Below the pieces are notes generated by a model. That model made no database searches. It was not told the DNA's origin and saw nothing but the letters and a program-made list of their open reading frames with translations. From Chlorokybus atmophyticus (Eukaryota; Plantae; Mesostigma and Chlorokybus algae), in assembly GCA_009103225.1 (NCBI GenBank), contig RHPI01002504.1:1-64000 (forward strand): 64,000 nucleotides of DNA. The letters are read 5' to 3'. The first letter of the stretch is position 1. Every line of letters begins with the position of its first letter. This document shows positions 1 to 22,147 of this stretch, piece by piece. The position numbers and the translations under genes were made by a program.

Positions 1-1
1 C

Positions 2-2430: not shown

Positions 2431-5400
2431 TGCTTTGATTTCCATGACCGCCATGTGTCCTTCCAGGAGCTCGAACACCTGGCTGGGGGGTGGATTGCTC
2501 GCTTTTCAGAGACCAAAGCAGCACACACCGCCCTCGAGACCGCCCATATGGAGGAGCAGGCAGCAGTCACTGTGGAAGACATTCCAGTGGTCGCCAACGC
2601 TACCTCGTGGTCCCACGCCATTGGACCGCTGGCCATAGGCCAAACTCGAGAGCAACTCGAGGCTCTCCTCAACAAGTGGAGGAGCCAATTCAGCTTCAGT
2701 GTGAAGGAGCTGGGCATCTGCTCAGCATACCAGATGGACATTGAACTAGTGGACACCGAACCGGTGTTCAGAAGACAGTACCGCCTCTCCAAGCTAGAAG
2801 AAGACTTGGTGGAACAGAGGTGCAAGGCGCTGCTAGATGCAGGCCTGATCGAGGAGTCCACATCGGACTTTGCGGCCGCGACCGTCATGCTACTGAAGAA
2901 AGATTCAGCAGGCAACTGGACAGACCGGCGCATGTGTGGCGACTATCGCCCCCTCAACAACAAGACCAAGCAGGACAGGTGTCCAATGCCTACCGCAGAA
3001 GGCATCTTTGACGATGTAGGAGACTGCACGGTCTTTAGTATCCTGGATATGCGCCAAGGGTACAACCAGATCGCCATCAAGGAGGAGGACAAGCACAAGA
3101 CTTCCTTCTGGGGAAACCGGCAGCTGTACCAGTGGAAGGTCATGCCCTTTGGACTGAAGAGAAGAGAGAAGAAGAGAACGCTCCGGCCAAGTTCCAGCGC
3201 GTCATGGACAAAGCCCTCAAGGGGTTGGACTTCGCACGCTGCTACATCGACAACATCCTCATCTTCAGTCACAGCAATGAGGAGCATCTCGAGCACATCG
3301 AAGAGGTGCTACAGAGGCTGAAGGAAGTCGGGATGACGGTGCACCCTGACAAGTGCACCTTCTTCACCCACAAGGTACCCTACCTAGGACACATGATTGT
3401 GCCCCATGGTGTGTACGTACAGCAGGCCAAAGTGGAGGCACTGGTGGCTATCCCTGCCCCCACAGACCTCACGCGGCTGCGGGCCTTCCTCGGCCTTGCC
3501 AACTATTACCGCCGGTTTGTCAAGGACTTTGCCAAGATCGCAAGGCCTCTCAACGAACTACTGAAGAAGGACACCGAGTTCTTGTGGAAGGAGGCACAAC
3601 AGGAGGCCTTTCAGGAACTGAAGCTCCGCCTCACCACAGCTCCCATTCTGCAACGCCCTGACTACACCAGGTCGTTCATCCCGCACACAGACTGGAGCTC
3701 GGCATGGGGGCCGTGCTCGTACAGCACGATAACAACAAGAAGGAGCGCGTAGTGTCGTACGCTAGCCGCAGCAACAACAGTGCTGAGGCCAACTACAGCA
3801 GCTACGAAGGGGAGTGTCTCGCCGCAGTGTGGGCCATCTCCTTCTTCCGACCCTTCCTGTTTGGACGGCAGTTCCAACTGGTCACTGACCATCAACCCCT
3901 CAAGTGGCTAATGAACAACCAGCACTTGACAGGAAAGTTAGCACGATGGGCGCTGCTGCTCCAGGAGTACGACTTCGAGGTGGAACACCGCGCAGGCCTT
4001 GCCAACCAGGATGCGGATGGCCTCAGCCGTAACCCCCACCTCAGCACCAACGACGCCACAGGCGCCCAACATGAGTTGGTTCATACAGCTGCACCTCCAG
4101 GTGTGGCCACCATGTTCTCTGTCGCTGCGCTACGCTCAGGACGCAGGACTCAGATCGCTGAGGCAGCAGCAGACAGGGACATGCCCGCTCTCAAGCCCGC
4201 CATCATCACCACAGCTCCTTTATCAGAAGAAGCGGTCGTTGCCGACCCTGAGGTGGATGATGAGGAGCTGGCACCCACCGACACACGACAAGACATCTGG
4301 CTGGACGAGCCATCCCTCGCACTGCTTCAGACTGGACAACTTCCAGCAGGCATGAGCGCACGCGAGAAGGACCGCGTCCGGCAACGCACTCAGCGTTACC
4401 GCTGGGCCAACGACAGGCTGTATCGACGGATACAAAATGCAGATCTGGAGGTCCCCACACCAGCTGCACGTGAAGGCATCATCTCCTCCCTTCACACCGA
4501 GCTCGGGCACTTCGGCGTTAAGCGCACGGTCAGCCTGGTCAGGACCCAGTACTGGTGGTATGGGGTGCACAGACAGGTGCGGGGGTTTGTCAGCAACTGT
4601 CAGCAGTGTGACATGGTTCGCGCCAGCCTCAACACGCGCAACGCCACCTTGCATCCCCTTCCCATTTCCGGGTTGTTCTACCGCTGGGGACTGGACATCC
4701 TCGGAGACCTAGCGCCCTCAGCGCGAGGCAACCGCTACATCCTCGTCATGATCGAGCACTTCTCCAAGTGGGTGGAGCTGGTGCCCCTGCTCGACAAGAG
4801 CAGTGAGGGAGTAGCCCAGGCTTTCCTCTCCCATGTACTCGGACGCTTCGGTTGCTGCACTGAAGTCATCACCGACCAGGGTACGGAGTTCAGAGGAGCC
4901 TTCGACAAGCTTGTCGACAGATGCTTCATCAACCACCGTCGCACCTCACGCGACCACCCGCAGGCCGACGGCCTCGCCGAGCGTACCGTGCAGACCATCA
5001 AGAAGGCACTGCGCAAGTACGTCCTCGCCTACGAGAAGAATACCTGGGATGATCACCTCCCATGGGTAGCAATGGGCTACCGGCTGTCCAAGCAGGCAGC
5101 CCTGCGAGAGTACAGTCCATACTATCTACTGTTCGGAAGGCAGCCATTGCTCCCTTTCCGCGCGCAGCAGGAGGTTGACAGAGTGGTGGACAATCTCGAC
5201 AACCCCGACGAGATGTTGTATGACCTGACAGTGCGCAGTGCGCTGTTCGAACACACAGTCCCCATGGCCTTCAACAACCTGCGCATCGCGCAGCACCGCG
5301 ACACGCTGCGCTACGAGCGTGTGCGCAGTGGTTTCTACAAGGAGCGGGAGCGCCGCTTCGAGTCGGGAGACTTCGTCTACCGTATGGCGTCTACACGCGA

Positions 5401-5755
5401 CACCCTCGATACCTCCGTCGGGCGTGCTGTCTACAAGGTATTGAAGGTGCACCCCACAGGGGTACTGGACCTGCTGGGACAACGAGGCGAGCGTGTGAAG
5501 GACAACATGGTCAACTGCGCGCCCTGTCATCTCCCCTACATTGCTGGCTTTACCAAGATCCAGCACCCGCGTCCGCTGCACAGCACCCGATGCGAAAAGT
5601 GTGGCAGCGCCGACGACGACCCATTGATGATGTTATGCGACGGCTGTAATCAAGGCATGCACTGCTATTGCCTTGACCCTCCACTGGACGCAGTACCCTT
5701 GTGGGAGTACTGGTGCGATGACTGCCGCATCAACGGTCCCCCACACAGTCGGTAG
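2431..5755 (+). pseudogene. pol: reverse transcriptase, RNase H, integrase (HHCC, DDE) and C-terminal PHD finger; frameshifted
   Basis: RMCGDYRPLN, LDMRQGYNQI, VMPFGLK, YIDN (YxDD mutated), TDW/MGAVL, YEGECLAAVWAI, TDHQPL, H-x4-H...CQQC, LDIL, TDQG, ADGLAERTV, CEKC...CDGC...HCYC...WCDDC. A 17-bp AG insertion at 3160-3176 and a second shift near 3700; no aspartic protease motif seen. Confidence 0.93.
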
Positions 5756-5801: not shown

Positions 5802-6635
5802 TGGCTTGTTGACTGTGTGCACTACGACACAGTCTGTACACAAAGGTGGCGAGCGGCATCGGCTCGTCCACTGCACTAAACACCGCGTAGGCTCATCTTC
5901 AAGCCTATGCCCACGATTGGGGGGTTGTCTTTTGCTTGCATGACTCCAATGCAATGCACGGCACTAGCATGCGTGCAGCACTAGCACTCCTCCGCAGCCT
6001 GTCCGAGACAAGGTTGCCCTCGACCATGGCAGGCACGACAGCTGTCATGCCATCTACCCTCGCATGCCAGTCCTTCTCGAGCATGCCTACACCCAGACCC
6101 ACGCCCGGGCTACCAGCATGAAGACCGCGTAAGCCCCAGCCTACTGCTAGCTACTGTACCACTCATGTAGCATGTAGCTAGGGCTACGTTATAGACCTGT
6201 CTGTAGGGACCGCGCGTAGCTGATCAGTTGTAAGTCTGTTAAGAACACATGTGCTATATCGAGTCTTAGGAGATTTCCGAAATAGCATGAGGCCTCGATG
6301 TGACCGTTGGCCTAGTGCCCGCGTGGCACTGCACAGTCATGATTTGACATGTATAAGTAGGAAGTCACGTCACCAGACTGGCTGGTGACACTGTAAGTGA
6401 GTACTGTGAGTACTAGGAGTACTAAGAAGTAAAGACTCTCTTTCTAAAGAGCTTGTGAAGCGACTTGAACTGGAAGCACGCTGTCCCGGTTGCCAAGAAT
6501 TCCCTTACTGCGTGAGACACGGTGCATTCTCTTGTGCGCTGTGCCTGTCATTGCTGTGAGCTTGGCGGTGGTGTGTTGTCTCATCAGCTAGGGTGTTGTA
6601 TCCACGTGTTGCACACTCATTCACCTTACTTAACA
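5802..6635 (+). repeat. 3' LTR (~834 bp)
   Basis: Starts TGGC right after the PPT and ends ...CTTAACA; the 3' end is inferred from the canonical AACA. Confidence 0.75.
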
Positions 6636-6692
6636 GTGTATCATTCTATGCACTCATGCAAAGAACTGTGTCCACAGCACTACCTATCGTAG

Positions 6693-6931
6693 TGGCTTGT
6701 TGACTGTGTGCACTACGACACAGTCTGTACACAAAGGTGGCGAGCGGCATCGGCTCGTCCACTGCACTAAGCACCGCGTAGGCTCATCTTCAAGCCTATG
6801 CCCACGATTGGGGGGTTGTCTTTTGCTTGCATGACTCCAATGCAATGCACGGCACTAGCATGCGTGCAGCACTAGCACTCCTCCGCAGCCTGTCCGAGAC
6901 AAGGTTGCCCTCGACCATGGCAGGCACGACA
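6693..6931 (+). repeat. Truncated second LTR copy (239 bp)
   Basis: Direct repeat of 5802-6040 with one mismatch (A5880 vs G6771). Confidence 0.95.
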
Positions 6932-7021
6932 CCATCAAGCAGCGATGCACCGTCAGTTACCCACACGCATTACGCCGCGCGAAAAAAATGGCAGGCACGT
7001 TCATACCGATCGCATACCGAG

Positions 7022-7407
7022 ATGCCTTCGGCTCTGGTCACCGACGACGACCCCATCAACCGCGCCGTGATATCGCGCGCGCTCAGTACGGCAGGCTACA
7101 CCGTGGTGACCTGCGCTACCGGCGCGGAAGTCCTCGCGCAAGGCCCGCGGCTCCGCTTCGATGTCCTCATCGTCGATGAACGCCTGCCCGACATCAACGG
7201 GTCCGACCTCATCGAAACTCTGCACATTTACGGGATGTGCCCAAGGAGGCGCGAGTCGTGTTTGTATCGACCGCGGACCTCTCCGATCGCTACTCCCGGC
7301 TGCGCGACATGAACGTATGCGCCGTGTTCCGCAAACCGCTTAAAGTCACCGACGTGGTCAGTTGCATCAAGCGCGACCGCGGCGGCGCCTCTTTCGAAAC
7401 CTTCTGA
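7022..7407 (+). pseudogene. Stand-alone CheY-like response-regulator receiver domain, one frameshift at ~7226-7233
   Basis: MPSALVTDDDPINRAVI...FDVLIVDERLPDINGSDLI, then after a frame change DVPKEARVVFVSTAD...AVFRKPLKVTDVVSCIK. Acidic pocket, phospho-Asp, S/T and KP are all present. Confidence 0.85.
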
Positions 7408-7783
7408 TCGCGCTAGATTTTCGCCTCTAGGAGCGTAGGCCAGTCTAGGGGCCGGCAATCAGCGGCGGCCAGAGGATGTTTCGCAATAGGAACCTCAGCG
7501 TGCAGATCCCCGACAATTCAAGTAATCCGCGCATGCTGTGCGTGCTGTGCATGCTGTGTGGGACGATTATGACTATCACCGCTGCTGCCTGGCTCTTGCA
7601 GACGCTAGAAGGGACCGCGTCGTTCCCATATGCCCGAAGCCGAAGCCGCCGCCACCGCCGGCGGCCTTTGCGCCATGTGCGTTATTATGTTGGTTAGGGG
7701 TCGTGAAACCCGCACGCCCTCGTGTCTTAACCCGTTGCGTTCCAGGCAAGCGAGTAGCGGATGGCGAGCTGTGCCCCCAAGAC

Positions 7784-9004
7784 ATGGAAGAGCTGGCGAC
7801 GCTTCTCGAGATGACTCTCGATTCGTCCCTCATGGATTCCATGGAAGGTTCGGTCGCGCCGCAAAACTCGCCCGCAGTCGCCGCCGCCGTCGCTTCCGCC
7901 GACACTTACCAAGTGACGGAGTCCATGGCGTCGGTAAACCTGCGCAACGAATATCCGGAGCGCAAACTAAACCTCCGCGTGCTGTTCGACGCCCTGAACC
8001 GCAGCGACCTCGCGCCGGTGTTGCAACGAGTGTCCCCGAGGCACTTCACTTCCGCCCACCTGCGCAAGGTGGTCGCGCGCGTGCCGGGGATGTTCGGAAC
8101 GCCAAAACAGTTTCGCAAAGGATCTTCGGTGACGGCCACTCTGTTGTTCGCCGCCGGCGAAGGAGTCGATGACCTGCAGATCAACCCCGATTACATTCAG
8201 TGGGGTGACGCCGCGTACGGCCACCTCGACGTCTTTCTCACCCTGTTGACCTCTGACACGGAGAGCTACAACATCGCCGTGCGCGTGCATCGCAACGGCT
8301 GCATGATGCCGCGCATGAAGCCGCCATCGAGCGCTTGCCGCGGAAGAGAACTCGGCGTCATCGGCGCCTACATCGAGCTCGCCGGCATCCTCGCGCGTGC
8401 CGCCATAGCCTGCGGTGCGGCGGACGTCCCGTACGGCGTCAGGGACGTCGATCTTACCTGCCTGAACATCCAATGGGACGCGGGCAGGACGTTCGAGCCC
8501 CGCGCGACCTCGTTGGCGATGGGCGCCACGTACCGCCTCGCAGACAACGACGCGATCAAGCCCCCACTGTACTTCAAGACCGTCGGTCCCGACTCGCCGA
8601 TCAAGCTGGCGACGAAGGCGAAGCGGAACGTCGAATGCCATCCCAAACCCTCTGTTTGCGTGCACGTCGGTGGGGTGGTCCAGGTGTGGGGGTGCAAAGA
8701 CTTCGCGATGGCCGATGCGCACTTTCGGCAGGTCACGGCGCTCCTCGCCGACGTGCCGATGGACCCCACGGCGCAAACCCGCATGAACAAGAGCGGCGCG
8801 ATTCGAAGGCGCGCAAGGAAGCCCGACCAGAGGTCTGTCATGGGCGTTCAGTACCCCAAGTGGAAGGTGCCCGCTCTGCGCCGCTCGATATTTCAGCTCG
8901 CCGGGTACGAGCCTTCCCTCCGCGCCAAGAAGAAGGAGCTTTTCGAGGAACTATTAGCCGCGGTTCGCTACAAGGCTAGTCTAGAGAACGACAGTGAGTC
9001 TTAA
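7784..9004 (+). CDS. Divergent TATA-box-binding-protein-like factor (NCLDV type)
   Basis: Two TBP-like repeats: YQVTESMASVNL...KLNLRVLF / NIAVRVHRNGCMM and VDLTCLNIQWD / PSVCVHVGGVVQVWGCKDF...FRQVTALL; intronless; frame is open from 7538. Confidence 0.6.
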   Translation: MEELATLLEMTLDSSLMDSMEGSVAPQNSPAVAAAVASADTYQVTESMASVNLRNEYPERKLNLRVLFDALNRSDLAPVLQRVSPRHFTSAHLRKVVARVPGMFGTPKQFRKGSSVTATLLFAAGEGVDDLQINPDYIQWGDAAYGHLDVFLTLLTSDTESYNIAVRVHRNGCMMPRMKPPSSACRGRELGVIGAYIELAGILARAAIACGAADVPYGVRDVDLTCLNIQWDAGRTFEPRATSLAMGATYRLADNDAIKPPLYFKTVGPDSPIKLATKAKRNVECHPKPSVCVHVGGVVQVWGCKDFAMADAHFRQVTALLADVPMDPTAQTRMNKSGAIRRRARKPDQRSVMGVQYPKWKVPALRRSIFQLAGYEPSLRAKKKELFEELLAAVRYKASLENDSES

Positions 9005-9559
9005 TTGATCTAATGAGATTGCAATGCATCGCTCTTTAAAATTTATGCACATCGGTAATACATGTCGCGCGCGAACAACGTATCGGCTGCGGGCGGCATC
9101 GCCGCCGCCACAGCGGCCGCCGCGCCCTTCGGCGCGTGGCTGAAACCCGCCGATCTGCGCAGCTTCGCGCAGCGAACGGACTGGGTGGGGCTTCACAAAA
9201 CCACCCTAATCCTACTGCGGAACGTCTAGAGTACTCCAAGGCCGCGCGCCTCCTGCGCACCATGGCGATGCCGCTGTGTGGGTGCTTTGGAGCACCCAGA
9301 ACTATGCCTACGCGCATGGCCACGCCACCGCGAGTAGGATATTAGGACTTGAACAGGGAACAATACACAGGGCCGTGGGACAGTCCGCGGGACAATCCGC
9401 GGGGCCGCGGCCTGCCACTGGGACTCCTACCCTAACCCTATATATATTTGAGTCTGCAGGCGAGCATTGCGGCAGCCATCACCATAGGGTGTGCAATTGT
9501 GGTCTCCACTGTCTTCTATCGTCTGCGTTGCAGTCTTACCAGTGACCGCAGAGTCGACC

Positions 9560-11581
9560 ATGGCGAAGCGATGCTGCAAGTGAGTCACTGTACTACCTTT
9601 GCCCACCCTCTCTGTCTCTCTCTGTGCATGTGTGTGCGCACTTGAGCGTGTGCAACTTGCGCCGGTATGGTCTTAGTAATGGGCTTAGCGTGCACGCATG
9701 TGACTGCACGAGCTGGCTGGGGCATGAAGAGTTCTGTTACCTTCGCCCCACCTCATGGCAAGCATCTTATGATGAAATACTACCTTCAGGAACATACAGC
9801 TTGCCTGACATGTGTGACTGACTCTCCATGTGGTTCTGGTGTCGCAGTTTTGGCGTTTGCTTGGCTGACGTTCTGCTCTGCGCTGTTACCGCTGTTTTCA
9901 CCTTTGTCATTCCTGCTGCCGGGCAGAGCGCCATCTCTGCATGCGCTTCTGTATTAATCCAGGTAACCTGATGTTGTCATAGCACGAATGTGGGTGCGCC
10001 TTGAGGCATGAGTTCTCCTTTCATTTCCCCCCCACGGCGACCGTTTCCGCTATGTGTGTGCGAGGTTTTACAGATGGGTGTGAGTATGACATGTCCATTG
10101 TTTGTGTGCAGGGCGTCTACAACTCTATATCTTAGGGCAGTTCAAGCCAGAGTTATCAGACGTTCCAGACCACTGTATGCACTTGGGCAGATTCTTACAT
10201 GTTTCAACAGTATCAAAACGACTACAGCGCCAACAGCGCCAGCAGCACGGTGAAAAACATTGAAGCGACAGCGACCCAGTTCGGCGTTTGGAGTGCTAGC
10301 GCAGGCGCCAGCGCAAAAGAGTCGCACCTTTCATCCGACCAGTTCTCGCTATTTGTGAAGAACGTAGATGACTACAAGATACATGCCTGTTCTGCAGCCT
10401 CGTCTTCCGCATCGTCAAGCGCTGATCTTCAATACATTAGCAATTGGATCGATCCCAACGTCATCAATGCCTGGCAGTCCTGCGTTAGAAATTTCGCCAC
10501 TGGTACCACTATCCAGAGCACGACGGGTGTGGACGGCGACTCGTGGGCTCTTAACATTGTTTTCGATAGCACAGTGTCGGGCGCAACAGCCTCTCTCAAC
10601 GGCTACTCGGTCACACCTGCCAAGGCTGCTGTCTGCCTTCTCCACGGGCCCAAAGTCACGCCAAGCGCCAAACTGTCATTGACGTGGCCGTTGGCAACAT
10701 CTGTCACCTACAACGTCTATTGCGTTAGGAATGCGACGGGTCTAACTAGGGCCGTGGACGTGTTCATCTACACAAGTGCAGGTACGTGATAATTGTTGCC
10801 GTTGTGTTATGCCATACAATGACATCTTCTTTGTCATGTGTTGACTTGCTTTGCCATCTACACAGGGGGATACTATCACGCCATACTCTACAACGCCCCT
10901 GCCCCCCCGCAACTTTCTCAGCTTCAGGCGCTCGTCAACCAGCAAGGCGTTACGCTCAACAACAAGGTCGCAGGGCTGCAGGCGCTCGTCAACCAGCAAG
11001 GCGCCACGCTCAACAACAAGGTCTCTGAGCTGCAGACTCATGTGGACAGCTTTTACGACGAAGGAAAGCTTACTGCCTATGCCCTCGACCTGTACGCCTG
11101 GGACGACCCGGCTCAAACGATCAGATACATGATTCAAGCTGCTTAAGGGGGGGATCAGAACTTCTCTCCAAGTGTTTTCATCATAAGGGACATGATGGCC
11201 GTTGCCAGCAACTTGGATTACCGGATCGCATATTGGACTGGTTCTGTCGACCTGCAGATGGCGAAAGAGACGGACGGTACATTTCAAGGAGTGAATGCTG
11301 TGCAAGTAGCGCATGATGCTTGGAATGTGGCATCTAGCACCCAGCAGAGGTTGGCTTCCATCTACGACGGCTGGGCGCTCACTGCTGTCGCAATTCGCAG
11401 CACGAGCGGGCAATATTTTGGATCCGGAAACAATAATATGGTGATGTGGCAGGATGGCTGCGTCACCTCGTACGGTGCTGGAGGCCAGGCAGGGGGCATA
11501 ATAAGTAGACACAACAGTAGGAAAATGCCCCAAGCCTCCCTCTTGATGTGTCAGTATAGAGCATGTAGTCTGAGTGTGTGA
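9560..11581 (+). pseudogene. Intron-containing secreted/surface protein gene with two in-frame stops, inside the viral block
   Basis: Exons 9560-9579, 9848-9962, 10112-10781 and 10866-~11581 splice in consistent phase (GT-AG). Signal peptide MAKRCCNFGVCLADVLLCAVTAVFTFVIPAAG; TAG at 10133 and TAA at 11144; TATATAT at ~9439. Confidence 0.7.
10925..11023 (+). repeat. 54-nt (18-aa) tandem duplication encoding a coiled coil
   Basis: QALVNQQGVTLNNKVAGL / QALVNQQGATLNNKV. Confidence 0.9.
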
Positions 11582-11637
11582 TCTATTACTCTGTGCATTT
11601 AGCAATAAGTCTGCTTATAGCGCTTGAATATCAATCA

Positions 11638-11831
11638 TGACGTGGGCGTTGCTATTTGGCGCATGGGTGCTGTCCAAGGTGTCTTTGTTGTTGGTTCCAT
11701 GCGTATCGTCGACCTTAGAAATAGCTCTGCACAATAAATGACGTGGGTAGTGTTGTTGGCGCACGGGTGTTGTCCAATGTGTTTTTTGGGTTCCACTGGA
11801 AGTATGTCGACCTTAGAAATAGTTCTACACA
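11638..11831 (+). repeat. Degenerate ~100-bp tandem duplication
   Basis: TGACGTGGG...GTCGACCTTAGAAATAG(C/T)TCT(G/A)CACAA occurs twice. Confidence 0.85.
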
Positions 11832-12342
11832 ACCAATTCAAAATTGAAATTGATGGAGGTTTTGTGTCTGCTAGCTGAAGCTTTATCAATTCTCTCCTTC
11901 TCAAACTGCTCTGTATCCCCCCTTGCTGAGTAAACTTTGTCGCGTACACATACTGAGAGCAGAACAAGCAGTAGTATAGGCGTTGCGTGTACAGTGATTG
12001 TGAGATATACCCGTATCGTTCATGTCAGTACGCACGCAAGGAATGTTTCTGCAATTGATAGTACATCGTCCCAACCACTATGTCCTGTTTCAAACAAGCG
12101 AAAAGCGAATTAAGCGTCCTTGTACGCCTCCTCGAGCGTTTTGACCAGAATCTTAACGACGTCCGGCTGACTGCAGCCGTAAGCGCCGTTTGCGCCGTCT
12201 TCTCCCACTTGCTGTTCGGCTGCAGCGGGCTGCGCAGGCGCTGGAGACGCCAGAGCAGAATGCGGGCGGTTGAGATCGATGTCGAGTCGGGGTCGGAGAG
12301 CGGAAGCCGCGATGCGCACATCGCACATCTGCGTGACGCGCC

Positions 12343-12774
12343 TCAAGCACTGTACCTGGCGGCGATCGCCGGCGGCGCGGACAACAACGTACATCGCGCA
12401 AGCATCGCATCTGCGCGCCCCGTGCCACCTCGCCATCCCCATCCCGCGAGAATAGGATCCACCTGCGGGTCGCTCGCGAAGAACAGCCGCTTTCCGTGCG
12501 TCGGCCGCGGATCGAAGTAATCCTTCGACAGCCAGCCTTCCACCCCCCACTTCGACACCACAGCCACATACAGAGGCATGTCCTGAATGAATCGCAGCGT
12601 CACGTCGCCATCTGCGAGCTCCACCGTCGACTTGCGTCCCGCGCGACCGATCTCTAGGAGCTTCAAGCCGCCGCCGCCAGCTCCGCCCTCCGCCGCCGCC
12701 GCCGCCGCCGCCAGCGCTCGCTTGGGCGCCGCCCCGCCGCACGACTTCCTGGCGGTTCTCCTGATGATCGCCAT
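12343..12774 (-). CDS. Histone H3 N-terminal tail mimic fused to an SH3-like domain; C-terminus probably continued past a stop or frameshift toward ~12110
   Basis: MAIIRRTARKSCGGAAPKRALA vs H3 [22 protein letters not shown], 13/22 identical with no gaps. Followed by an Ala/Gly linker and TVELADGDVTL...YVAVVSKWGVEGWLSKDYF; no histone fold. Confidence 0.7.
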   Translation of the reverse strand: MAIIRRTARKSCGGAAPKRALAAAAAAAEGGAGGGGLKLLEIGRAGRKSTVELADGDVTLRFIQDMPLYVAVVSKWGVEGWLSKDYFDPRPTHGKRLFFASDPQVDPILAGWGWRGGTGRADAMLARCTLLSAPPAIAARYSA

Positions 12775-12864
12775 CCTCACCGCCGCCCGCTGTCCAGGAC
12801 CATGAGTGTGCGTCGCTGACTTGGCATAAAATGCTGAGCCTTATACCACGATCTCGCGCATATC

Positions 12865-13953
12865 ATGGCAACGTTCGAAGATGTTCTCGTACCGCTGATT
12901 CACAACGCGCGCGCGCTGGGCCTGGAAGAAACCTCGGCCATAGCTTGCTGCAGCAAGTTCTGCCGTGACACGGTGGCCTCGATCCCCGCGAGAGTCCCCT
13001 CAGCAGTAACGGAATTGCCCCTCGAGATCGATCTGGACCACCCCGATCGATGCTCGAGATGCGACCATCCCTACGCGCTGTTCCAGTGGCCGTTCGAGGG
13101 ATCCGACTGCGGAGCCCGGCTGTGCTACGACTGCCTGCTCCCGCGAGCCTGGCCGAACGCGGAACTCGATGACGCGACCGCGCCCCCTCGTGCCACCAGG
13201 CTGCGCGTAATACCCCACACCAGCGCGGTCAGGCTGTTCGGTCTCGGTGGCGACACCAGGCTCGCTCCGTACGTGGTGCAGCGGTCGATGGGCGGACGCG
13301 TCTGCGGCGTCTACTACAGCCTGCGCGACGTGGTCGCCTTGGCCGTATCCAAAAGCGGATCGTTGCAGGCCGTGCGCAACAAGTTCCGCAGGCGCGAACT
13401 CAACCGGCAGCGCCGGCGCGAACTGCCCGCGCAGCGCTGCGCGCTCGCCAAGGCGGCGCTCGCGAGGGCGAAAGAAACGGACCCCTTCCTGTCGGAAGCC
13501 CTGTTTGAAGCGGCGGTCGAGGAGTACATCCGGAACGGCCGCGGCGGGACCAAGCGGCTGGCGGACAGCGCGGCGCGCTGCTCCGCGCTACACGCGGCGC
13601 TCGCCGCCCGCGGGCTGTGAGCGAGCCCTTACGAGTGGGCGTGCGTCTCGTACGTCAGCGGAGGCCTCCTCGCCCTGGATTGCGTCGTCGATAGCGTCGC
13701 CGCGCAGAACTTTTATTCCACGGAAACGGACTTCTCGTTGATCTTCGCCGACATGATAGAGCGAGAGCGCGGCCAACTACAGGCCGCGCACCACTTCGTG
13801 CAGCACGTCATGCTCGACGCTGACACTTACGCCAGGATCCACCGGCAGGCCCGCGCGGCCGCTGTCGACCGGTGGCTGCTGTGCGGCGGAGACCCGCGCG
13901 ACCTCCCGCCCGCAATCCGCGATGCTACATCGCCGCCACTGCCAGCGCGGTGA
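12865..13953 (+). pseudogene. F-box-like + XPA-like zinc/DNA-binding protein, in-frame TGA at 13618-13620
   Basis: CSRC-x20-CYDC, VIPHTSAVRLFGL, YYSLRDVVALAVSKSGSLQAV; the same frame stays open after TGA (ASPYEWACVSYVSGG...) to 13953. Confidence 0.55.
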
Positions 13954-14173
13954 GGCCCGTGACGACGATCTTCGTGGCCTCCTCCCCCGCGGCCGCCATC
14001 GCGCGCTGCAGCAGGATGCACTCCACCGACGTGTGCGCGCGGAACATGCTGGCCACAAACCCCGACGCGCAGTAGGCGGCATGCATCCGCGTGGATGCGA
14101 ACCAGATCGAGTGCAGCACGACGTAGGTGATCGCCGCCGTCCCTATGGCCCCGCACGCCTCCCGCCACACCAT
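13925..14173 (-). CDS. Small NCLDV-type membrane protein
   Basis: Hydrophobic N-terminus, H..W...MHAAYCASGFVASMF...SVECILL pattern, GC3-rich codons. Confidence 0.5.
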   Translation of the reverse strand: MVWREACGAIGTAAITYVVLHSIWFASTRMHAAYCASGFVASMFRAHTSVECILLQRAMAAAGEEATKIVVTGLTALAVAAM

Positions 14174-14238
14174 GCTCCCGGATTCCGCGCGCGCCCTTAC
14201 GTCGTCGCGCGAACAAAAGCGCGCGGACCGACATCATC

Positions 14239-14547
14239 ATGGAAGCGGCCGTCGCGGGGCTGCTGATGGTGGTGGTGGTGGCCGCCCTGCTGTCTTGCGT
14301 CGCGCGGTGCTGCGAATATTTCTCCCTGCCATGTCCGGCGAGCGAGCCGCTCCCACCGATCGTTCCCACGCACGACCTCGCCTGCGGCTCGCACGTCGTG
14401 GTGGTCAACCCCGACAGCAGCACCTGCGTCGGCGTGCTGAAGGACACTCATCAATCCACCGACTCGGCCGCGACCATGTCGAGCAGCCCCGACCCGTCCA
14501 GCAGCGCCTTGCCAACGGCGCCACCGGCGTCGACGGGAGCCCATTGA
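14239..14547 (+). CDS. Small N-terminally anchored membrane protein
   Basis: MEAAVAGLLMVVVVAALLSCVARCC TM segment, VVVVNPD motif. Confidence 0.45.
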   Translation: MEAAVAGLLMVVVVAALLSCVARCCEYFSLPCPASEPLPPIVPTHDLACGSHVVVVNPDSSTCVGVLKDTHQSTDSAATMSSSPDPSSSALPTAPPASTGAH

Positions 14548-15047
14548 TCCCACTCGTCGTAAGCGGCGTTCATCCCCCGGCACAGCGCGCACTCGCACAT
14601 GCTGCACGCGAACGGAGGCGGTTTGGCCTCGTCGTCTGCCGGCTGCGATTCCAGAGACGCCCCCGTGTCCCGTCCGAGTTCTTGCTCTGACGGCGCGCGA
14701 CACCTGAACCTGAGTCCGTACAGCACGTCTTCCAGGTGGACGAAACCTCTCCCCGCGTGCGCGCTGTACTCCACGGCGTCTGCCAGAGCGGACGCCACGA
14801 TGGCTCGCACGGTGGTCGCGTACGCTTGGGCATCAAAGACTCCATGCACGATTTCAGGAGCGCTCAACGCTCGGCCGGAGCGCATGAACGCGTAATCCTC
14901 TCTCGGCCTGCACGCGGGCTCGGGCGGGCGCTCGCTATCCCAGAACACGGCGCACGTGTAGCCGCGGTTGGTGCGCAGGAGGACTAGCGACGAACTAAAC
15001 GATACCATCACGGCGTGCAACACGCGATCCTCGTCACCCATCATCAT
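14451..15047 (-). CDS. Viral hypothetical protein with an H4-like alpha2-L2-alpha3 half histone fold and a Cys/Trp C-terminus
   Basis: DAVEYSAHAGRGFVHLEDVLYGL vs H4 [23 protein letters not shown], 12/23 identical; then CSMCECALC..MN..YDEWDQWAP. Confidence 0.6.
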   Translation of the reverse strand: MMMGDEDRVLHAVMVSFSSSLVLLRTNRGYTCAVFWDSERPPEPACRPREDYAFMRSGRALSAPEIVHGVFDAQAYATTVRAIVASALADAVEYSAHAGRGFVHLEDVLYGLRFRCRAPSEQELGRDTGASLESQPADDEAKPPPFACSMCECALCRGMNAAYDEWDQWAPVDAGGAVGKALLDGSGLLDMVAAESVD

Positions 15048-15390
15048 TACGGTTAGCGCGAAATTTGCTTCAAAGCAGACGCGTGCTGCTGCTCATTGCA
15101 GCTGCTGTTCTTCGTGTGCGTCTATTCCCGAACAACTACATCTCGCCAACTTCACCTCCGTGCGCCCGGCGATGCTGCTCGACGCTCCTAAAATCAAAGG
15201 ATACGTTGATGGCGTACGACTGTCGTTGATTCCTCTTAGGAATCGACAGTGCTCGCAACATTGCGTTGCGGGCAATGCGAGATGCGGCCACGTCAGATAT
15301 GGCGTGCTCGTACTGCGTTCGTGTACAGGACTTCAATGCGATGTCCGTGAACGTTCAGGTTTGACGTATCGGGACACCGGCAAAACGATA

Positions 15391-15852
15391 TCACATGGCG
15401 GACGGCGGGACAACGATGGCCACCGGTGGAAGGGTGCCTATCAAGGGAGCGTCGACGGCAGAGATGGGGTACATGCCCAGTTCGGTCGTCAGCACCGGTT
15501 CGGGGCCTTCGGGCCGCGCCGTCGCGGCAGCCAGGTTGGGCAGTGGGTCGATGGCGATCGGCAGATCGGTTGGGGGCACCACCGCCGGCTGCTGCGGGAT
15601 CAGAGGCGCGTCGCCCGCGATGTCGCCGTACACGGGGGACGCCCCGGTATCTTCGATGCCGCTGTCGGGGGACAATGGTGCGTACCCGAGAAAGCCGCTC
15701 TTACCCTTGAAGAGGCCCCAGCCCGACATGATGCCCACGGCGAAGCCCAGGACGAAGGCCATCGCGATCCAGCCGAAAGTGCCCATGTTGAACATGGCGG
15801 ATGTGTCGCCCGTCCCATAACCGGCGGTGCCGTAATAATCCCTGTAGCCCAT
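15391..15852 (-). CDS. Single-TM Pro-rich viral hypothetical protein
   Basis: ATG start, TM FGWIAMAFVLGFAVGIMSGWGLF, GC3-rich. Confidence 0.55.
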   Translation of the reverse strand: MGYRDYYGTAGYGTGDTSAMFNMGTFGWIAMAFVLGFAVGIMSGWGLFKGKSGFLGYAPLSPDSGIEDTGASPVYGDIAGDAPLIPQQPAVVPPTDLPIAIDPLPNLAAATARPEGPEPVLTTELGMYPISAVDAPLIGTLPPVAIVVPPSAM

Positions 15853-15922
15853 CGTTTGGTATGTTCGAAAGAAAAATAGCTGACGCTGGCGGGCGCCATA
15901 CCATTTTTCTCAGCCACTCGCA

Positions 15923-16300
15923 ATGGAGTTCCAGCGGCTGCGCTCCCGCTCCCGCTGGCGCAGGCTCAAGCGCATCCTCCGCGAGAGCTTCGTGGAGAGC
16001 GTAGTCGTTACGATGACCTTCGTCCTTATCTACTCGGTGAGCAACCACGACTCGAGCCGGACGCTCACCCTCTCGCGCCTGCCCCTGTTGCTGCTCATCT
16101 TCGTCATCATTAACGTCCTCATCAAGACGAGCTCCGCCACCGACAGCAAGTCACTGGTATTGGGCACGGTCAGCTCGCTGGGCAGCATGGCGATGTCGAA
16201 CCTGCTCTTAGTGCAAATATATATATTCTTGCGTACCGATACACGATGCAGCTGTGGCCCGAATCGACAACCGCGCGGGTGGCGATCGTCGCAGTTGTAG
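15923..16300 (+). CDS. Multi-TM viral hypothetical protein
   Basis: Basic N-terminus followed by 2-3 hydrophobic segments; divergent from the 15852 gene. Confidence 0.5.
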   Translation: MEFQRLRSRSRWRRLKRILRESFVESVVVTMTFVLIYSVSNHDSSRTLTLSRLPLLLLIFVIINVLIKTSSATDSKSLVLGTVSSLGSMAMSNLLLVQIYIFLRTDTRCSCGPNRQPRGWRSSQL

Positions 16301-16581
16301 CGCTAGCGGTCTGCGCGTTCGTTCTCCACCGCATGGGCGGCTTCAAGTCGGCCTTCGGCAGCCGTACCACCCGCTGCCACCACGCCGTCGAGCAGGTGTG
16401 CAAGTACGCCTCCCTCGCGGAGGGCACTAGCCCCGACGACGGGTACGCCGATTGCATGGAAACTATCAATTCCCTCGGCCCCCTCAAGTGCGCGTTTGTT
16501 ACCGAACGGCTGGCGTCCTGTCTCGCCGATTTTGAGGGCTCGCCCGACCTAAACAAGCTCTACCAGTGCTCTCAAAAGTGA
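16246..16581 (+). CDS. N-anchored Cys-rich small protein
   Basis: TM VAIVAVVALAVCAFVL, 6 further Cys, intronless. Confidence 0.55.
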   Translation: MQLWPESTTARVAIVAVVALAVCAFVLHRMGGFKSAFGSRTTRCHHAVEQVCKYASLAEGTSPDDGYADCMETINSLGPLKCAFVTERLASCLADFEGSPDLNKLYQCSQK

Positions 16582-16590
16582 TCGGCAAGC

Positions 16591-18331
16591 CTACCTGACC
16601 GGCGGATACTGCGGGAGCTTCATCCTCTGTGCTTGATGCGCGAATGTGTTCAAGCACACGGTGGCTATCCCACCTAGCACGGCACCAACGACATCCGGGT
16701 TTGCATTCTCAACTATGAAGGTGAGGAATGGAGGTGACGTCCACCCCGAGCCAGCTTCGTCGGGCCGATGGCGCGGCGGCGATGGTATCTGCGCGGCGTC
16801 GTTGTGCGAACCTGACATCGTCGCGTTACACGTCATGTTGAATACCGTCTTATTCGCGTTGCGCAAGACTTCCGGCGTCAAGTGCTCGTTTGTAAACGTT
16901 CTTCCGTTATTGACTACTTGAACTGGTGTCGCCGCCAAGGTTATGATCTCGGGTAACTCGCTCCATTTGAGGGGAGGATTAGCGCCGTCTTGGCGCCTCA
17001 TGTGTATGCGGCTCGTTCCGTTACCGTCCTGGCGCACGCACTGCGCGAGGTTGCGGACGCCTGTCCCACCGCCATAAACACGTTCGATGGCATCTGGGCC
17101 AGCATGCTCTCGAAAGTTCCGTTTTGAAATATCGTATCACGGAACTCCGGATCGGATGTTGGCTTAACGACCTCTTCTCGGGGTGCGCCCATATGAATTG
17201 CATCAACATCACCGCCGTCGCCGTCGAAGCGACCATCACGTTGAGCATGCGCACGGTCTTGCGAGGAACTCTCGGGATCCGCCAGAACGGCCGTTGGCTA
17301 CGCCACGACTCCAGCTTTCTCAGGACCGGGCGGGCCACCATCGCCGAGGCGGTGATGAGCTGCAGCGGCACGTTCCCGGGAAGGCAATAGCACCATACCT
17401 GCCGGGCGGCTTCGTTTATGAGACGCCTCCAGGTAGCTACCGGCACCGGAATCGGCCCTACTGGCTGGGGCGGCGGGGGCGGCAGGGGCGGGATGACGAT
17501 CGGGACGGGCGTCGGGTACACCAGTTCCTCTTGTGTGGTGTGAAAGCTGTTGTTGCTGGTAGCGGTGTGGTAGCTGCTGGTGCTGCTGGAGGAGCTGCTG
17601 CTGCTGCTGCTGCTTGTATCCGAATCGCGCAACGGGTACGGCGGGGGCCACCACCACCATAGCGGAGGTTGTTGGCCCTGCATGTTCGGGACGTGCGCGG
17701 GGGGCACCGGGGGAAAGTTTACGGGGTAGACGGCGTTGGCAGCAGCAGCGGCCGCATTGCCTGACCCCAATCCCCCGTTGCGCGCGCCGCTCCCGGCGCC
17801 TGGAAGGCTGTTAGTCGGAGTGCCGTTGTTCAGATACCGCGCGCTGCAGTAGATCACGTAGACCCCGTGCGACGCGTGCGGGCCCCAGAACGCCCAGAGG
17901 TCCTTCGCGTACCGCTTTGAGGTTCGCAAACCTCCCGCCAGCCACGAGGCCAGGACCGCGATCGCCGCCCAGACCTGCCATCCGAACAGGACGAGCAGCA
18001 CCTGCGCCAGCCGCACCAGCAGGGGCGACGAGCGCTTATTCAACAACGCCGTGCTCAATCGCCGCAGAACGAACACCAGTTCCCTTGCGAATCGGCGCTG
18101 CATTGCCGGGGTGTTGGCGGTCGTAAGAGGAATCGCCAAGTTCCTCCGTTTCTCGCTGCAATAGCGCTTGAACGCTTCGTCCAGGAGACCTTCCGCCAGC
18201 CGGATCTCCCTGGGCCGCGCTGTCGCCATGCGCTTCTTGTTTGCTTGCGCGGCCATCACGCCCGTCAGCGCGGCCGCGGACACCGCGCCCACTACCGCAG
18301 CCACCGTCAAGGCTTTCGTCGAACTGAACAT
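16591..18331 (-). pseudogene. Large membrane protein gene with at least 2 frameshifts
   Basis: ORFs 17021-18331, 16998-17192 and 16591-17037 overlap in succession; TM segments, Ser run and Pro-rich linker. Confidence 0.5.
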
Positions 18332-18896
18332 TCCGGGACCGTTCTATATGGCCGGGGATGGCCTCGCGCGCAGCGATCGAACTGTACTCCTTGCCCTCTT
18401 GTTTCGCACAGCCGCCCCCCTGGCGGCCGCGAGCGTTCGCCACGTCGTCATGCTCGAACTCGAGAAAAGATTGTGTGCCGATGCCAATGCGCGCGATGCC
18501 TCGCACGCCGGCGGGATTTCAGCAGAGGTCGATGTCGGGAAACCTTTTGGATTTGCGCGTGAATTCCGTCGTTAGGCTACGCGCCCTCGGGCTATCCCCG
18601 AAGCGCGAGTGGCGCGTGTAACGCATACTCGTCCGTCTCGGGTGGTTGCAGCAGGACTACAAGTACGAGGGGGCGCGGGAGGACCCCCAGCGGCAGAGGC
18701 GCCGCGCTCTGAGGGTGCGCGACCGCCGAGCGCTAGTCCGCGCCGGCCTCGTCGGGCCGCACCAGATAGTGCACCACTTCACGTTTGACGCACGAGACGC
18801 CGTGCGCATGCGCGGGATCAGCATCGTAAGTGCAGACTCGCACCAGCGGCACCACTCGCGGAAACATCTAATCGAAAAGCTCGGTGAGCTCATCGA

Positions 18897-19585
18897 TCAC
18901 CGCCGGTCGGGCAGCCGCTCGTCGCCGCTGGACGCCATCGCCATAGCGTCCAGCTGAACGAAGCGCACGCCCAGCGTGCGCGCCAGCGCGTCCGAAGCTC
19001 GCTTGGTCGGCCGGCCGCGCACGACTCTGAGGCTGTCGTTGGCGACCCTGGTCTTCGCTATGGCGTCCAGGCGCTGCTGCTGCCGCTGCAGCTGGTTGCT
19101 CTGCTCCCGCGCGGACCGCTTTTCCGGTGTCCGAGGCGGCGACCGGTTCGCGGCCGCCAACGACGAGGGAGCGCCCACCGGCGCGGTGATCGGAACCGTG
19201 CGGCCCTCGTAGTCGCTGTACATCATGTCGGCCGATAATTCGCGATACTTGCGATCCGAAAGGCCCTCTCCGAACCGCCGGAACTCGTCCAGGGACATGT
19301 GGTCCCCCCGTAAGCCCTCAGCAGCAACCGCGGCGGCGCGGCGCGGATGCCTCCGCCGATTTTCCCCACCACTTGCTTTCGCAGCAGCGTCAGCCACGTC
19401 CCGCACAGGTCCTTCCTCGCGCTGTTGCGGCTCAGGTTGAACGACTTTGCGCACGAGAAGCTGCAGAAGTTCCCGATCGTTTCGAACTTCTTGAGACGCT
19501 CATCGTACTTTATCGGCAGCCCGACAGGAGGCCCGCTCAGGGCGTGCCCGTCGTACCAGCATACGAGCTGGTCCGTATCTGCCAT
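18897..19585 (-). pseudogene. Poxvirus A1L/VLTF2-like late transcription factor, frameshift at a G6 run (~19303-19310)
   Basis: CWYDGHALSGPPVGLPIKYD...IGNFCSFSCAKSF...APPRLLLRAYGG, then shifted HMSLDEFRR...RPTKRASDALARTLG. Confidence 0.85.
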
Positions 19586-19663
19586 CGTCGCTTTCGGGCC
19601 GAGGTAGGCGCGCGCTGGCCTTACGCCCGCGCGGCTGGCAAAATTTGTGGCGCAGCGGTAGGC

Positions 19664-20430
19664 ATGAACATCATCCCCGGATCGTCCCTCGACGACCGCA
19701 TGGCGCAGATCATAGCAGCACCTCCACGACAACCAGGCCGGTCAAGCCGGATCAGAACCTCTCGATGGGCGCCTCGACGACATGGAAGTTGCGCTGGTGA
19801 CGCCGTCGGCCGCGGCCTCGCCGCGGCGACGACGGCCGCAGAGTCGCGGTTGGGAGAGCTCGCGGATCGCGTGAGCGCCGGCTCGCAGCTCGCGGACTCG
19901 CGAACTTCAGCCGTCGAGGCGCGCGTGGGAGAACTAGCGACGCGAGTCGCCGAGATGAACAAGCGCCTGTCTGCCCTCGACGCGCGACTCATGGAAGTGA
20001 CTAACCGCAACGACTCTGGGATCCAGCGCACGAGGGAAGCGGCGACGCGCATCTCGGACATGAAGCACGCCTCGCGGCCATGGATGCGCGGGTAGGCGAT
20101 CACGCCAACCGCAACGATACTTCGCTGCAACGCGCGGGGGAATTGGCGTCGAGGGTCTCCGATATGGACATGCGGCTCGCGGCCACTGACGCGCGGATCG
20201 CAGAGCACGCCAACGGAGACGACGCTGCGATCCAGCGCGCCGGAGACATAGCGACGCTCGTCACCGACATGGACCGGCACCTGGCCGCCATCGAGGCGCG
20301 GAATACTACGGAATTTTCGCCATCAGCAACAAACACGGGTGCTGGGGCCCCGGACGAGATACATACCGTCGCCCAGCGGGTCGACGCGCTGGAACGTAGA
20401 CTGGACAACCGGCTCAAGCTCATGCATTGA
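19664..20430 (+). pseudogene. Coiled-coil protein with ~35-aa repeats, frameshifted
   Basis: ELATRVAEMNKRLSALDARLMEVTNRND / ELASRVSDMDMRLAATDARIAEHANGDD / DIATLVTDMDRHLAAIEAR; ORFs 19373-20095 and 20080-20430. Confidence 0.6.
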
Positions 20431-22147
20431 CGACTCTAGCTGATCTACGATAACTTGCTGAGCCCTGCATGTACATGACGCTGACTGTGTAACGCCTGGT
20501 TGTTCAGGCGCAAGAGCGGCTTGCGGTGCGCCTCCTGCAGCGCACAACGCATGTCCTTGCTACTGGTTTACTGGCAGCGTTCACTTCAGATGATTAGTCC
20601 ATAAGCTGCTGGTATAATGATTGTGTAATCGCGGCCAATGTATAGTGTGAAGCAAATGCTGCAGACCCAATCAGCGGTGTCCTCAAGATAGCGCGCCCTT
20701 CACAACCTGCGCCCTTGCATGAGGTACCACTGCCTGCAGGTTGAGAAGGCGATAATTGTGCAAGTCTTACACCTTGGTTTCCTCCATGCAAGAACTCATA
20801 TGGTATGTGTAAGTGCTATTCAAAGAGTTGATGTAGTGCCCGGAACGATGCTCTACTTTTGTTCTTGATTGGAGGCATACCCAGGATTGTGACTGTTTGC
20901 CGTCAGCGTGCGTGGCGTGCACATTGCAGAGAGCGCAAGCTTATCCACGATACTATCAATGGCGCTTTGATCGAGATTTTCAGAGCGTCTACTGCACGAA
21001 AGACCGAGCATATATCCTTAAAGTCTTGTCCCACGACGTCGTCGCCAACTGTCGCCCGTGCGGGCTCCATGCCACGGTCTGCGCCCCCCCGCAACTGTGG
21101 CCCCTGATGTTCTTTTGTGCAAAGCAAGCATACCTGCATATCACACGCGGTCTGCATTGCTGCTAATAGTTAAAAGACAGCAAGCAGGTCAAGTGTGCAC
21201 CTGAAGTTGGAGTGTTACGTGTTCACGCACATACCCACTGCAGTGTAACAGAATGCTGCCAGCCGCGATGCTGGGGCATGTGCTTTTCCATTAAACACGA
21301 GCGCCAGCATATGCACAGGTATGCGAGTGAAAGTATTACACGGCAATGGCTGGTGTAAACCCCTGACGTGACCCTGACTGCGCCATTGCAGAGCGGAAAG
21401 CGTCAGGGTTGCACTGTTTTTCATCAGGCAGCAAGCAACGTTACGCACACACAGTAGACTACCTCTGATGTGTGCAAACGCTGACCCTAAGCCACGCACG
21501 GCGAGCAAGCATGTGGAACGACTGACCCGAACAACCAACGGCGCGCGCACATGCACTGCCTTTTGCAATACAACCACACATGACATGCTCCCCGCTGCTC
21601 ACCTCTCCCACTCTCCCGCTCAACCAGCCAGCCGCACTTCACAATCAGCGCTTGTATAGTTCCAGTGGTTCCTGTGGTTCTTCCCCTCCTCGTTGTCCTC
21701 CACACCCGCCTCCGCCTCTCCCTCGCCGCCATCCTACTGCTGCTGTGCCAGTCTGCCACTTGCTGTCAGCAGCAGCAGCACCCACCTTTGCTGCAGCGAA
21801 GCTCTCAGCAATCGATATAAGCATACTTTGCTGCAGACTTCCGAGTCGAAACACTTCCGACAGTAACTACTGTCTTGCAAAGAGCATACGCGGCGGCGGC
21901 AGCGGAGGAGGACGCGGAGGTGGAGGCGGCGGCAGTGAAGGAGTTGGAGCAGGAGAGGGTGGGATGAAAAGTGTTAGTACCATCTGTGGCGTTTAGAAGT
22001 TGTTGCGGCCGTTTAGGGGTTTTGTTTTGTTTGAAGCAGTAGATACCAAGCCTGCTAGGCCGAGTTGGACTTCTCCGTCTTCCCAGGCCAGGCCAGAGCT
22101 AGAAGAGAGCGGAGGCGGCGGCGGCGACATCGTCACTTTCCTCGACC

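Follow-up and report, generated by a model that had tools for sequence, protein, structure and literature searches.

We analysed 64,000 nt of the genome of the alga Chlorokybus atmophyticus (assembly GCA_009103225.1, contig RHPI01002504.1, positions 1-64,000 of the forward strand), a stretch referred to below as the window, which holds a block of foreign composition with genes related to those of giant viruses (Nucleocytoviricota). A preliminary description had placed the limits of this block at 6932 and 20430, and had treated it as a single 13.5-kb viral insert of high GC content set against an intron-rich host flank. The GC content is 0.611 over 6932-20430 versus 0.531 over 22148-64000. The observed-to-expected ratio of CpG (CpG o/e) is a sharper discriminator of the block than GC content: it reaches 1.35 and 1.29 in the 1-kb intervals across 7001-9000 and 1.08-1.33 in the nine that make up 12001-21000, and is at most 0.98 in all remaining scored intervals of the 64 kb. 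Segmentation of the whole window with a dinucleotide Markov model (trained on 13000-19500 versus 23000-64000, smoothed over 400 nt, with stretches of at least 600 nt reported) returned just two viral-like stretches, 6921-9335 and 12123-20427, the former being picked up although it lies outside the training set. The outermost switches, at 6921 and 20427, fall within a few bases of the limits first proposed, but the block between them is not continuous: two pieces of foreign composition, about 10.7 kb in total, lie on either side of a 2.8-kb host-like segment. The segments and the open reading frames (ORFs) that bear most on their origin are as follows.

6921-9335, no strand: viral-like segment A, about 2.4 kb, GC 0.62, CpG o/e 1.3
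9336-12122, no strand: host-like segment within the block, 2.8 kb, GC 0.52, CpG o/e 0.88
12123-20427, no strand: viral-like segment B, 8.3 kb, GC 0.64, CpG o/e 1.27, densely coding on both strands
18897-19585, minus strand: VLTF2-like gene with an FCS-type zinc finger, full length, split into two frames near 19296
14451-15047, minus strand: H4-like ORF, intact, 198 aa, member of an unannotated giant-virus family
12343-12774, minus strand: H3-tail ORF, 143 aa, its first 46 or so residues like the histone H3 N-terminal tail, ARKS box kept
7784-9004, plus strand: 406-aa orphan ORF, a candidate for a highly diverged TBP-domain protein, GC content at third codon positions (GC3) 0.80
7022-7404, plus strand: stand-alone response-regulator receiver gene, frame broken near 7225-7250

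The block also differs from the host DNA in its coding character. Three-base periodicity of GC reaches at least 0.2 in 65% of 240-nt windows over 12080-20430 versus 23% in the host part, and the likely coding ORFs of the block (GC3 0.77-0.87) occupy both strands with short spacers; together with GC, CpG and the split ORFs of the neighbouring SLU7 gene, this bears out the distinction between block and intron-rich flank. Host exons are also rich in GC3, so the high GC content of the block reflects coding density in part. The VLTF2-like and H4-like ORFs are intronless and colinear with viral proteins, and inspection by eye revealed no promoter-like motif common to the upstream regions of block ORFs. 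Within the host-like segment at 9336-12122, three-base periodicity is weak, as are the ORFs, which lie mostly on the plus strand, and the depth in one public sequencing run is that of single-copy DNA. A search around this segment for terminal inverted repeats or a target-site duplication found none, leaving it without transposon ends. It carries tandem duplications of 54 nt (10921-11028) and of about 100 nt (11656-11837).

The clearest link to giant viruses is the gene at 18897-19585. We take VLTF2 to be the poxvirus A1L-type late transcription factor, a label that is in part assumed for the present family: no Pfam model names it, and the label draws on the zf-FCS finger and the literature. 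Passages of one published account (PMC11253617) give VLTF2 (NCVOG1164) as a signature gene of the Nucleocytoviricota. The two halves of the window copy are ORFs 19223-19585 and 18897-19298, and the frame change between them near 19296 sits at a run of six G. Initial searches returned little: the first Pfam scan gave only a weak zf-FCS match to ORF 19223-19585, a word-index search scored 0 of 17 candidates, and a single-protein scan of viral contigs with the VLTF2-like ORF found no match. The language-model neighbours of ORF 19223-19585 are three Nucleocytoviricota clusters at 0.93-0.94.

Both Cys motifs of the window ORF were then combined into a degenerate pattern, which occurs once in the window and in none of 100 shuffles. 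In a scan of IMG/VR this pattern is found in at least 120 stretches; 26 of the 120 contigs listed have GVMAG names. With ORF 19223-19585 as query, tblastn matched 114 of these 120 listed loci at E<0.01, the best among them at 48% identity over 90 aa (E 1.7e-22), confirming the VLTF2/A1L gene of the preliminary description as a gene whose frame has been broken once. The C-terminal half, ORF 18897-19298, is colinear with the same viral proteins, the conserved basic motif included. JGI metagenomes hold 160 further relatives, none above 48% identity, and 185,579 prokaryote genomes yielded just four partial matches of 17-47 residues. The zf-FCS domain (curated cut-off 22.4 bits; family matches counted at E<=1) was found in all 11 aligned family members, at 0.047 in the window copy and 2.1e-5 at best, and the window ORF displays the finger pattern C-W-[WY]-[CD]-x-H ... 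G-x-F-C-S-x-x-C-A. Its C-W-Y-D variant was considered as a sign of decay and dropped, since D stands at that position in 8 of 117 viral copies (WD in seven, YD in one).

Phylogeny had been proposed at the outset as a check. In a FastTree analysis of 101 domain sequences, a sample biased by the choice of members through a motif taken from the window, the sister group of the window copy comprises 40 copies whose contigs have 40-56% GC (support 0.80), and the branch of the window copy is long (tip length 1.30 versus a median of 0.19). The window gene thus shares with VLTF2 of giant viruses the FCS-type zinc finger, the FGG..EEFR region, the C-terminal basic motif and colinearity, and differs in being at most 48% identical, long-branched and frame-broken once. 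It would be a putative late-transcription factor gene, present here as a copy that is not one intact frame.

The H4-like ORF provides the second link. Translation probably begins at its Met 55, and its layout comprises an alpha2-L2-alpha3 segment, a linker and a conserved C-terminal N..YD.W..W.P motif that is without known counterpart. Taken alone, the window ORF resembles residues 55-95 of histone H4 weakly (E 0.3), and tblastn finds two viral loci at E 1.5e-5 (L020/L063). An alignment of the resulting pair led to 11 proteins at E 3.7e-92 to 1.8e-11, and the 12-sequence alignment (A2) to 153 relatives in IMG/VR; three viral records with the related VLTF2 have one copy each (G001-G003; E 1e-32 to 3e-35). 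Compared with the PDB, the family profile matches histone H4 at E 4.1e-5, with H4 in all of the best 60 matches, over alpha2-L2-alpha3 only. The H4-like fold of the preliminary description is therefore real at the level of the profile, for that part of the fold.

Pfam gives the family sub-threshold matches to TAF, TFIID-31kDa and CENP-T only and no Histone match; Histone was also absent from the Pfam results for G001-G003, where an empty answer shows little. Of the 60 columns conserved to 80% or more across 40 distinct viral proteins, the window copy matches 21, and it retains the invariant residues. Fold searches with a model of the protein returned weak histone-fold matches only, and a homodimer prediction, run with the alignment left unused, scored 0.02 against a mark of 0.32. 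Like histone H4, with whose alpha2-L2-alpha3 its profile aligns, the family has a histone-type segment, here encoded by large DNA viruses; unlike H4, it has no H4 tail and no confident alpha1, and it bears an extra conserved C-terminal domain. Family members are about 140 aa long (for example L142:7289-7798, with relatives L121-L191), with an acidic linker that carries FTRYTG and an invariant N..YD.W..W.P..K.

The block ORFs were compared by tblastn with 120, 188 and 276 fetched loci, and two families were found. Full-length relatives of both the VLTF2-like and the H4-like genes were detected only in giant-virus contigs, eukaryotic genomes lying outside the search. The surroundings of these relatives are those of large DNA viruses: among 54 flanking ORFs at five relative loci, Pfam identified Capsid_NCLDV (twice), Pox_A22, PCNA, mRNA triphosphatase, cap methyltransferase, TBP, TFIIS, deoxynucleoside kinase, N-myristoyltransferase, the PBCV-type minor capsid proteins P2/P9 and virus-only domains of unknown function. 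Close VLTF2 relatives at 40-41% identity lie in records of 179 kb, 125 kb and 70 kb, all three of which carry the H4-like family and two of which carry TBP; the 179-kb record has inverted terminal repeats and is 100% complete by CheckV. In that record distances of 30-70 kb separate the VLTF2, H4-like and TBP genes, so their clustering in the window reflects no conserved cassette. One AT-rich viral contig has all three within 10 kb. Among 80 flanked viral loci, 13 (L008, L011, L013, L014, L023, L045, L046, L048, L066, L068, L070, L075 and L078), mostly on AT-rich contigs, have a TBP-like gene no more than 6 kb from VLTF2, a proximity that may point to repeated linkage between the two transcription-factor genes.

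Comparison of the H3-tail ORF with the PDB by phmmer gave 125 matches at E<=10, with H3 in all of the best 60 and a best E of 0.0021, and aligned residues 1-46 of the query with residues 1-45 of H3. The resemblance of this ORF to the H3 tail, put forward earlier as histone mimicry, is thereby upheld, but no H3 fold was found after residue 46 or in any frame, and no Pfam family was matched. Dishui Lake phycodnavirus 1 (DSLPV1), a 181-kb prasinovirus relative, encodes histone H3, as passages of its description state (PMC9145170). The two cases are alike in pairing an algal-virus-type genome with H3-derived sequence; they differ in that the DSLPV1 protein is given there as full length and 87% identical to algal H3, whereas the window ORF has tail-like residues 1-46 joined to unrelated sequence. 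By analogy, a virus-borne H3 remnant is a plausible origin for the ORF. Histone mimicry by viruses is presented as an established idea in a preprint excerpt (bioRxiv 10.1101/2023.06.13.544862), and the tail-only ORF would be a concrete candidate for it in an algal-type virus. Coding-like GC3 periodicity continues beyond the stop of this ORF in the same frame (12080-12345), which may reflect a nonsense change or an overlapping gene.

For the 406-aa ORF at 7784-9004, the signals are divided. An exhaustive HMMER search had 0 hits among 1.84 billion representative proteins, no Pfam family (TBP, PF00352, included) was matched even at E<=10, a single-protein scan of viral contigs found no relative, no internal repeat was detected, and the single-sequence AlphaFold2 (AF2) model, with a pLDDT of 31.7, is unusable. 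Its neighbours in the language-model Atlas, in contrast, are giant-virus TBP-domain clusters at 0.88-0.89, and hhalign places residues 290-306 on a viral TBP profile over 17 columns with a score of 22.9 (E 0.034), a value that none of 185 shuffles attained (mean 13.2, maximum 19.8). In a hidden Markov model (HMM) test the real sequence ranks 23rd versus 2000 shuffles; BLASTP against two viral TBPs gives E 0.076-0.23 in the same region, and in a comparison with one viral TBP it found no match. All three methods, used with independent viral TBPs, chose the region 284-340 alike. The ORF is thus like giant-virus TBP (PF00352) in that residues 290-306 fit the strand-turn-strand signature G..G[AC]K, and unlike it in having no Pfam match, internal repeat or usable structure. 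The TBP-like claim made earlier has the neighbours and the 17-column motif in its favour and the Pfam, 1.84-billion-protein and AF2 results against it, and we regard a TBP identity as suggestive only. Records G001 and G002 (L194, L195) each encode a two-repeat TBP of 266-276 aa plus a long protein that has just one TBP-like domain; the open frames of the long proteins measure 665 and 895 aa, and they belong to the same kind of cluster as the nearest Atlas neighbours of the window ORF.

The receiver gene matches Response_reg (PF00072) at E 1.5e-12, with 48.1 bits versus a cut-off of 30.2, over profile positions 2-65 of 111. The second half is recognisable only by visual inspection of a different frame, and Pfam does not detect that half alone; the response regulator first reported is a genuine receiver domain, but one that is not whole in one frame. 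No Response_reg was found in G001-G003, where an empty answer again shows little. The remaining ORFs of segment B are the following.

12865-13620, plus strand: 251-aa orphan ORF, described earlier as XPA-like, with a Cys-rich zinc-finger-like motif, GC3 0.82
15391-15852, minus strand: 153-aa orphan ORF with a hydrophobic N-terminal segment, GC3 0.82, no family
17021-18331, minus strand: 436-aa orphan ORF with hydrophobic segments, a Ser run and a Pro-rich region, GC3 0.78, no family
19664-20430, plus strand: coiled-coil repeat protein in two overlapping ORFs, with 105-nt (35-aa) tandem units, at the right end of the viral-like DNA

An XPA identity for the 251-aa ORF finds no support in Pfam (no XPA family at E<=10) or in the PDB (the complete ORF matches no XPA chain at E<=1, and residues 56-192 none at E<=10), and what is left of it is a Cys-x2-Cys spacing; a word-index search scored 0 of 7629 candidates. 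Sequence after its stop remains coding-like for 110 codons in the same frame (13621-13950), and may represent a nonsense change or an overlapping gene. In the coiled-coil gene, three diverged 105-nt units lie at 19964-20277 and the ORFs 19664-20095 and 20080-20430 overlap in two frames, an overlap that may be a third frame break in addition to those of the VLTF2-like and receiver genes, the block genes, at least two in number, in which frames are broken. The coiled-coil ORF has a weak match to DUF7310, below the cut-off.

Host sequence borders the block on both sides.

1-5755, plus strand: interior of a Ty3/gypsy-type long terminal repeat (LTR) retrotransposon (Pfam RVT_1, RT_RNaseH, Integrase_H2C2, rve and PHD), extending beyond the window start
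5802-6931, plus strand: 3' LTR region of the retrotransposon, 1130 nt, with a polypurine tract upstream and TG...CA ends
22148-23605, plus strand: start of the host SLU7 gene (splicing factor), intron-containing, Pfam Slu7 E 5.6e-54 over split ORFs

More intron-split host genes follow SLU7. The retrotransposon integrase bears a C-terminal PHD finger, and the first 240 nt of the LTR region equal its last 240 nt; alternatively, the region comprises one 891-nt LTR plus a truncated second copy. The depth of the retrotransposon in one public run is about 160-180, versus about 1-4 for single-copy DNA (about 50-fold).

Contiguity of block and host DNA bears on whether the block is an assembly chimera or a contaminant wrongly joined to host sequence, a reading to which we give next to no credence. 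Runs of N do occur elsewhere in the scaffold, the composition of the block is sharply unlike that of its flanks, and no contig of the public run bridges either block junction or either frame break. Against this, the N runs of the window are limited to 33132-33458 and 43581-43734, leaving 1-33131 free of them, so that retrotransposon, block and SLU7 follow one another on gap-free sequence; the left composition switch (6921) coincides with the end of the high-copy host LTR; and public-run contigs with 0 differences lie on the block (8449-8968, 10141-10391 and 15320-15540) and on the flank (21853-22630) at an equal depth of about 2-4. The contaminant check thus favours continuity, with junctions that independent contigs do not bridge. 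The same contigs leave 11611-15216 and 18823-20625 uncovered, and the bin 18222-18822 is without depth; because the run is perhaps the assembly's own source and no junction is bridged, its independent support for integration is weak. One public-run contig (depth 2.2, at an 85% likeness setting) links 22964 back to 17946 with 57 letters on its shorter side, a join that may stem from low complexity or from a copy that has been rearranged.

Taken together, these observations indicate, with a probability of roughly 80%, that the block is a decaying fragment of a Nucleocytoviricota genome integrated into a eukaryotic chromosome. For the VLTF2-like and H4-like genes, the viral origin proposed at the outset is carried by homology; the remaining orphan ORFs, with the H3-tail ORF, the frame-broken receiver and the putative TBP relative among them, would be viral too by inference. 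On this account the retrotransposon would have integrated within a larger insert or at its margin, and the piece would no longer act as a unit, although single intact ORFs could still be expressed. An undescribed lineage, also suggested in the preliminary description, is possible, since no relative in IMG/VR or JGI metagenomes exceeds 48% identity. The nearest viral contigs have a GC content of 0.43-0.54 and a CpG o/e of 0.86-1.06; the donor may have belonged to a GC-rich lineage that is akin to the mid-GC algal-virus-like contigs known from sampling but falls outside them. That CpG is not depleted in the block would fit a fairly recent arrival or an absence of methylation-driven decay.

Several points weigh against this interpretation. 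The collections searched were IMG/VR, JGI metagenomes and prokaryotes, and host copies in eukaryotic genomes lie outside them. Detectable viral relatives exist for two block ORFs only: tblastn of 26 ORFs or ORF segments against 276 loci (2.3 Mb) found nothing else at E<0.01, and the 406-, 251-, 436- and 143-aa ORFs are without a match in G001-G003. When the 17 block ORFs were compared with Pfam, the receiver domain alone passed the cut-off, and none of the hallmarks of endogenous giant-virus elements (major capsid protein, the polymerase PolB, the packaging ATPase A32, VLTF3 and primase-helicase) appeared; a genome-wide search for capsid, PolB and A32 genes with the signature of the block had been suggested, and the 64-kb window holds none. 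The GC3 of block ORFs is near that of host exons (about 0.73), and the CpG o/e of the block, at 1.27-1.33, exceeds that of the nearest viral contigs, so that its signature matches no sampled relative. The frame breaks, one of them at a G6 run, could be assembly errors, and in the two regions where they lie the depth of the public run is zero (18823-20024) or close to it (6803-7403).

We consider it improbable that the donor was a small Nucleocytoviricota-related virus, mriyavirus-like or 'Polinton-like' and 35-45 kb in size, rather than a giant virus. Such viruses encode VLTF2, and some related groups integrases, according to passages of two accounts (PMC11253617; bioRxiv 10.64898/2026.06.19.733378), and the viral-like DNA visible here, about 10.7 kb without a giant-virus hallmark gene, would accommodate such a source. 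The close VLTF2 relatives at 40-41% identity, however, lie in records of up to 179 kb that all carry the H4-like family, the flanks of relatives hold typical large-virus genes, and mriyavirus VLTF2 is characterized in part of one of these sources (PMC11253617) as too divergent for good alignment.

Function of the block as a whole, as opposed to decay, can be imagined in several forms. The 'nuclear takeover and anti-silencing cassette' of the preliminary description, in which an H3-tail decoy, the H4-like protein, TBP and VLTF2 would work together in nuclear takeover or resistance to silencing, is in our judgement quite unlikely. The H3-tail ORF does keep its ARKS box, the H4-like ORF is intact with the invariant residues of its family, the CpG is undepleted, unlike that of host and retrotransposon DNA, and viral histone mimicry is treated as established in the preprint excerpt cited above (bioRxiv 10.1101/2023.06.13.544862); but the VLTF2 and receiver genes are frame-broken, the TBP identity is unproven and that of XPA unsupported, and the VLTF2, H4-like and TBP genes are dispersed over tens of kilobases (30-70 kb apart) in the complete 179-kb relative. 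Retention by the host, with the viral-derived genes domesticated and kept by selection rather than fossil, seems very unlikely: of the three genes with a recognisable domain, two have broken frames, the CpG signature is still foreign rather than ameliorated, and the lack of any relative of the 406-aa ORF among 1.84 billion representative proteins means no orthologues in other hosts, set against the several long intact ORFs (406, 251, 436 and 198 aa) and a GC3 near host exon usage that such retention would explain. More speculative, and improbable as a whole, is the idea that the block is one end of an insertion made fairly recently by a GC- and CpG-rich giant-virus lineage, as yet unsampled, with its own chromatin toolkit, in which an H3 N-tail decoy with only the ARKS box would soak up host H3K9 writers and readers beside a virus-specific H4-like factor and a divergent TBP, the undepleted CpG marking escape from host methylation.

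As a decaying giant-virus fragment, the block can be compared with known insertions. Moniruzzaman et al. reportedly studied endogenous giant-virus elements in 2020. Such elements, or smaller inserts from these viruses, are described in algae and protists, among them Chlamydomonas reinhardtii (in passages of PMC9693826), Euglena gracilis, where an excerpt reports erosion by frame breaks and transposable-element invasion (PMC12455990), and Acanthamoeba (in part of PMC12210455). The block differs from endogenous giant-virus elements in that about 10.7 kb are visible, truncated on the left by a retrotransposon that extends out of the window, versus tens to hundreds of kb; in that the capsid and replication hallmarks are absent from the window; and in that a 2.8-kb host-like segment splits the insert. 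It resembles them in placing viral genes in a host chromosome, in its distinct composition and in its continuity with host DNA, and it shares frame breaks and transposable-element invasion with the E. gracilis inserts as the excerpt describes them. As a whole, the block is one more endogenous giant-virus fragment, a member of a well-known class; what it adds is a view of an H4-like family, widespread in giant viruses, whose histone-H4-like half fold is unnamed by Pfam, and a base signature (GC 0.64, CpG o/e 1.3) that points to an unsampled virus lineage of this host.

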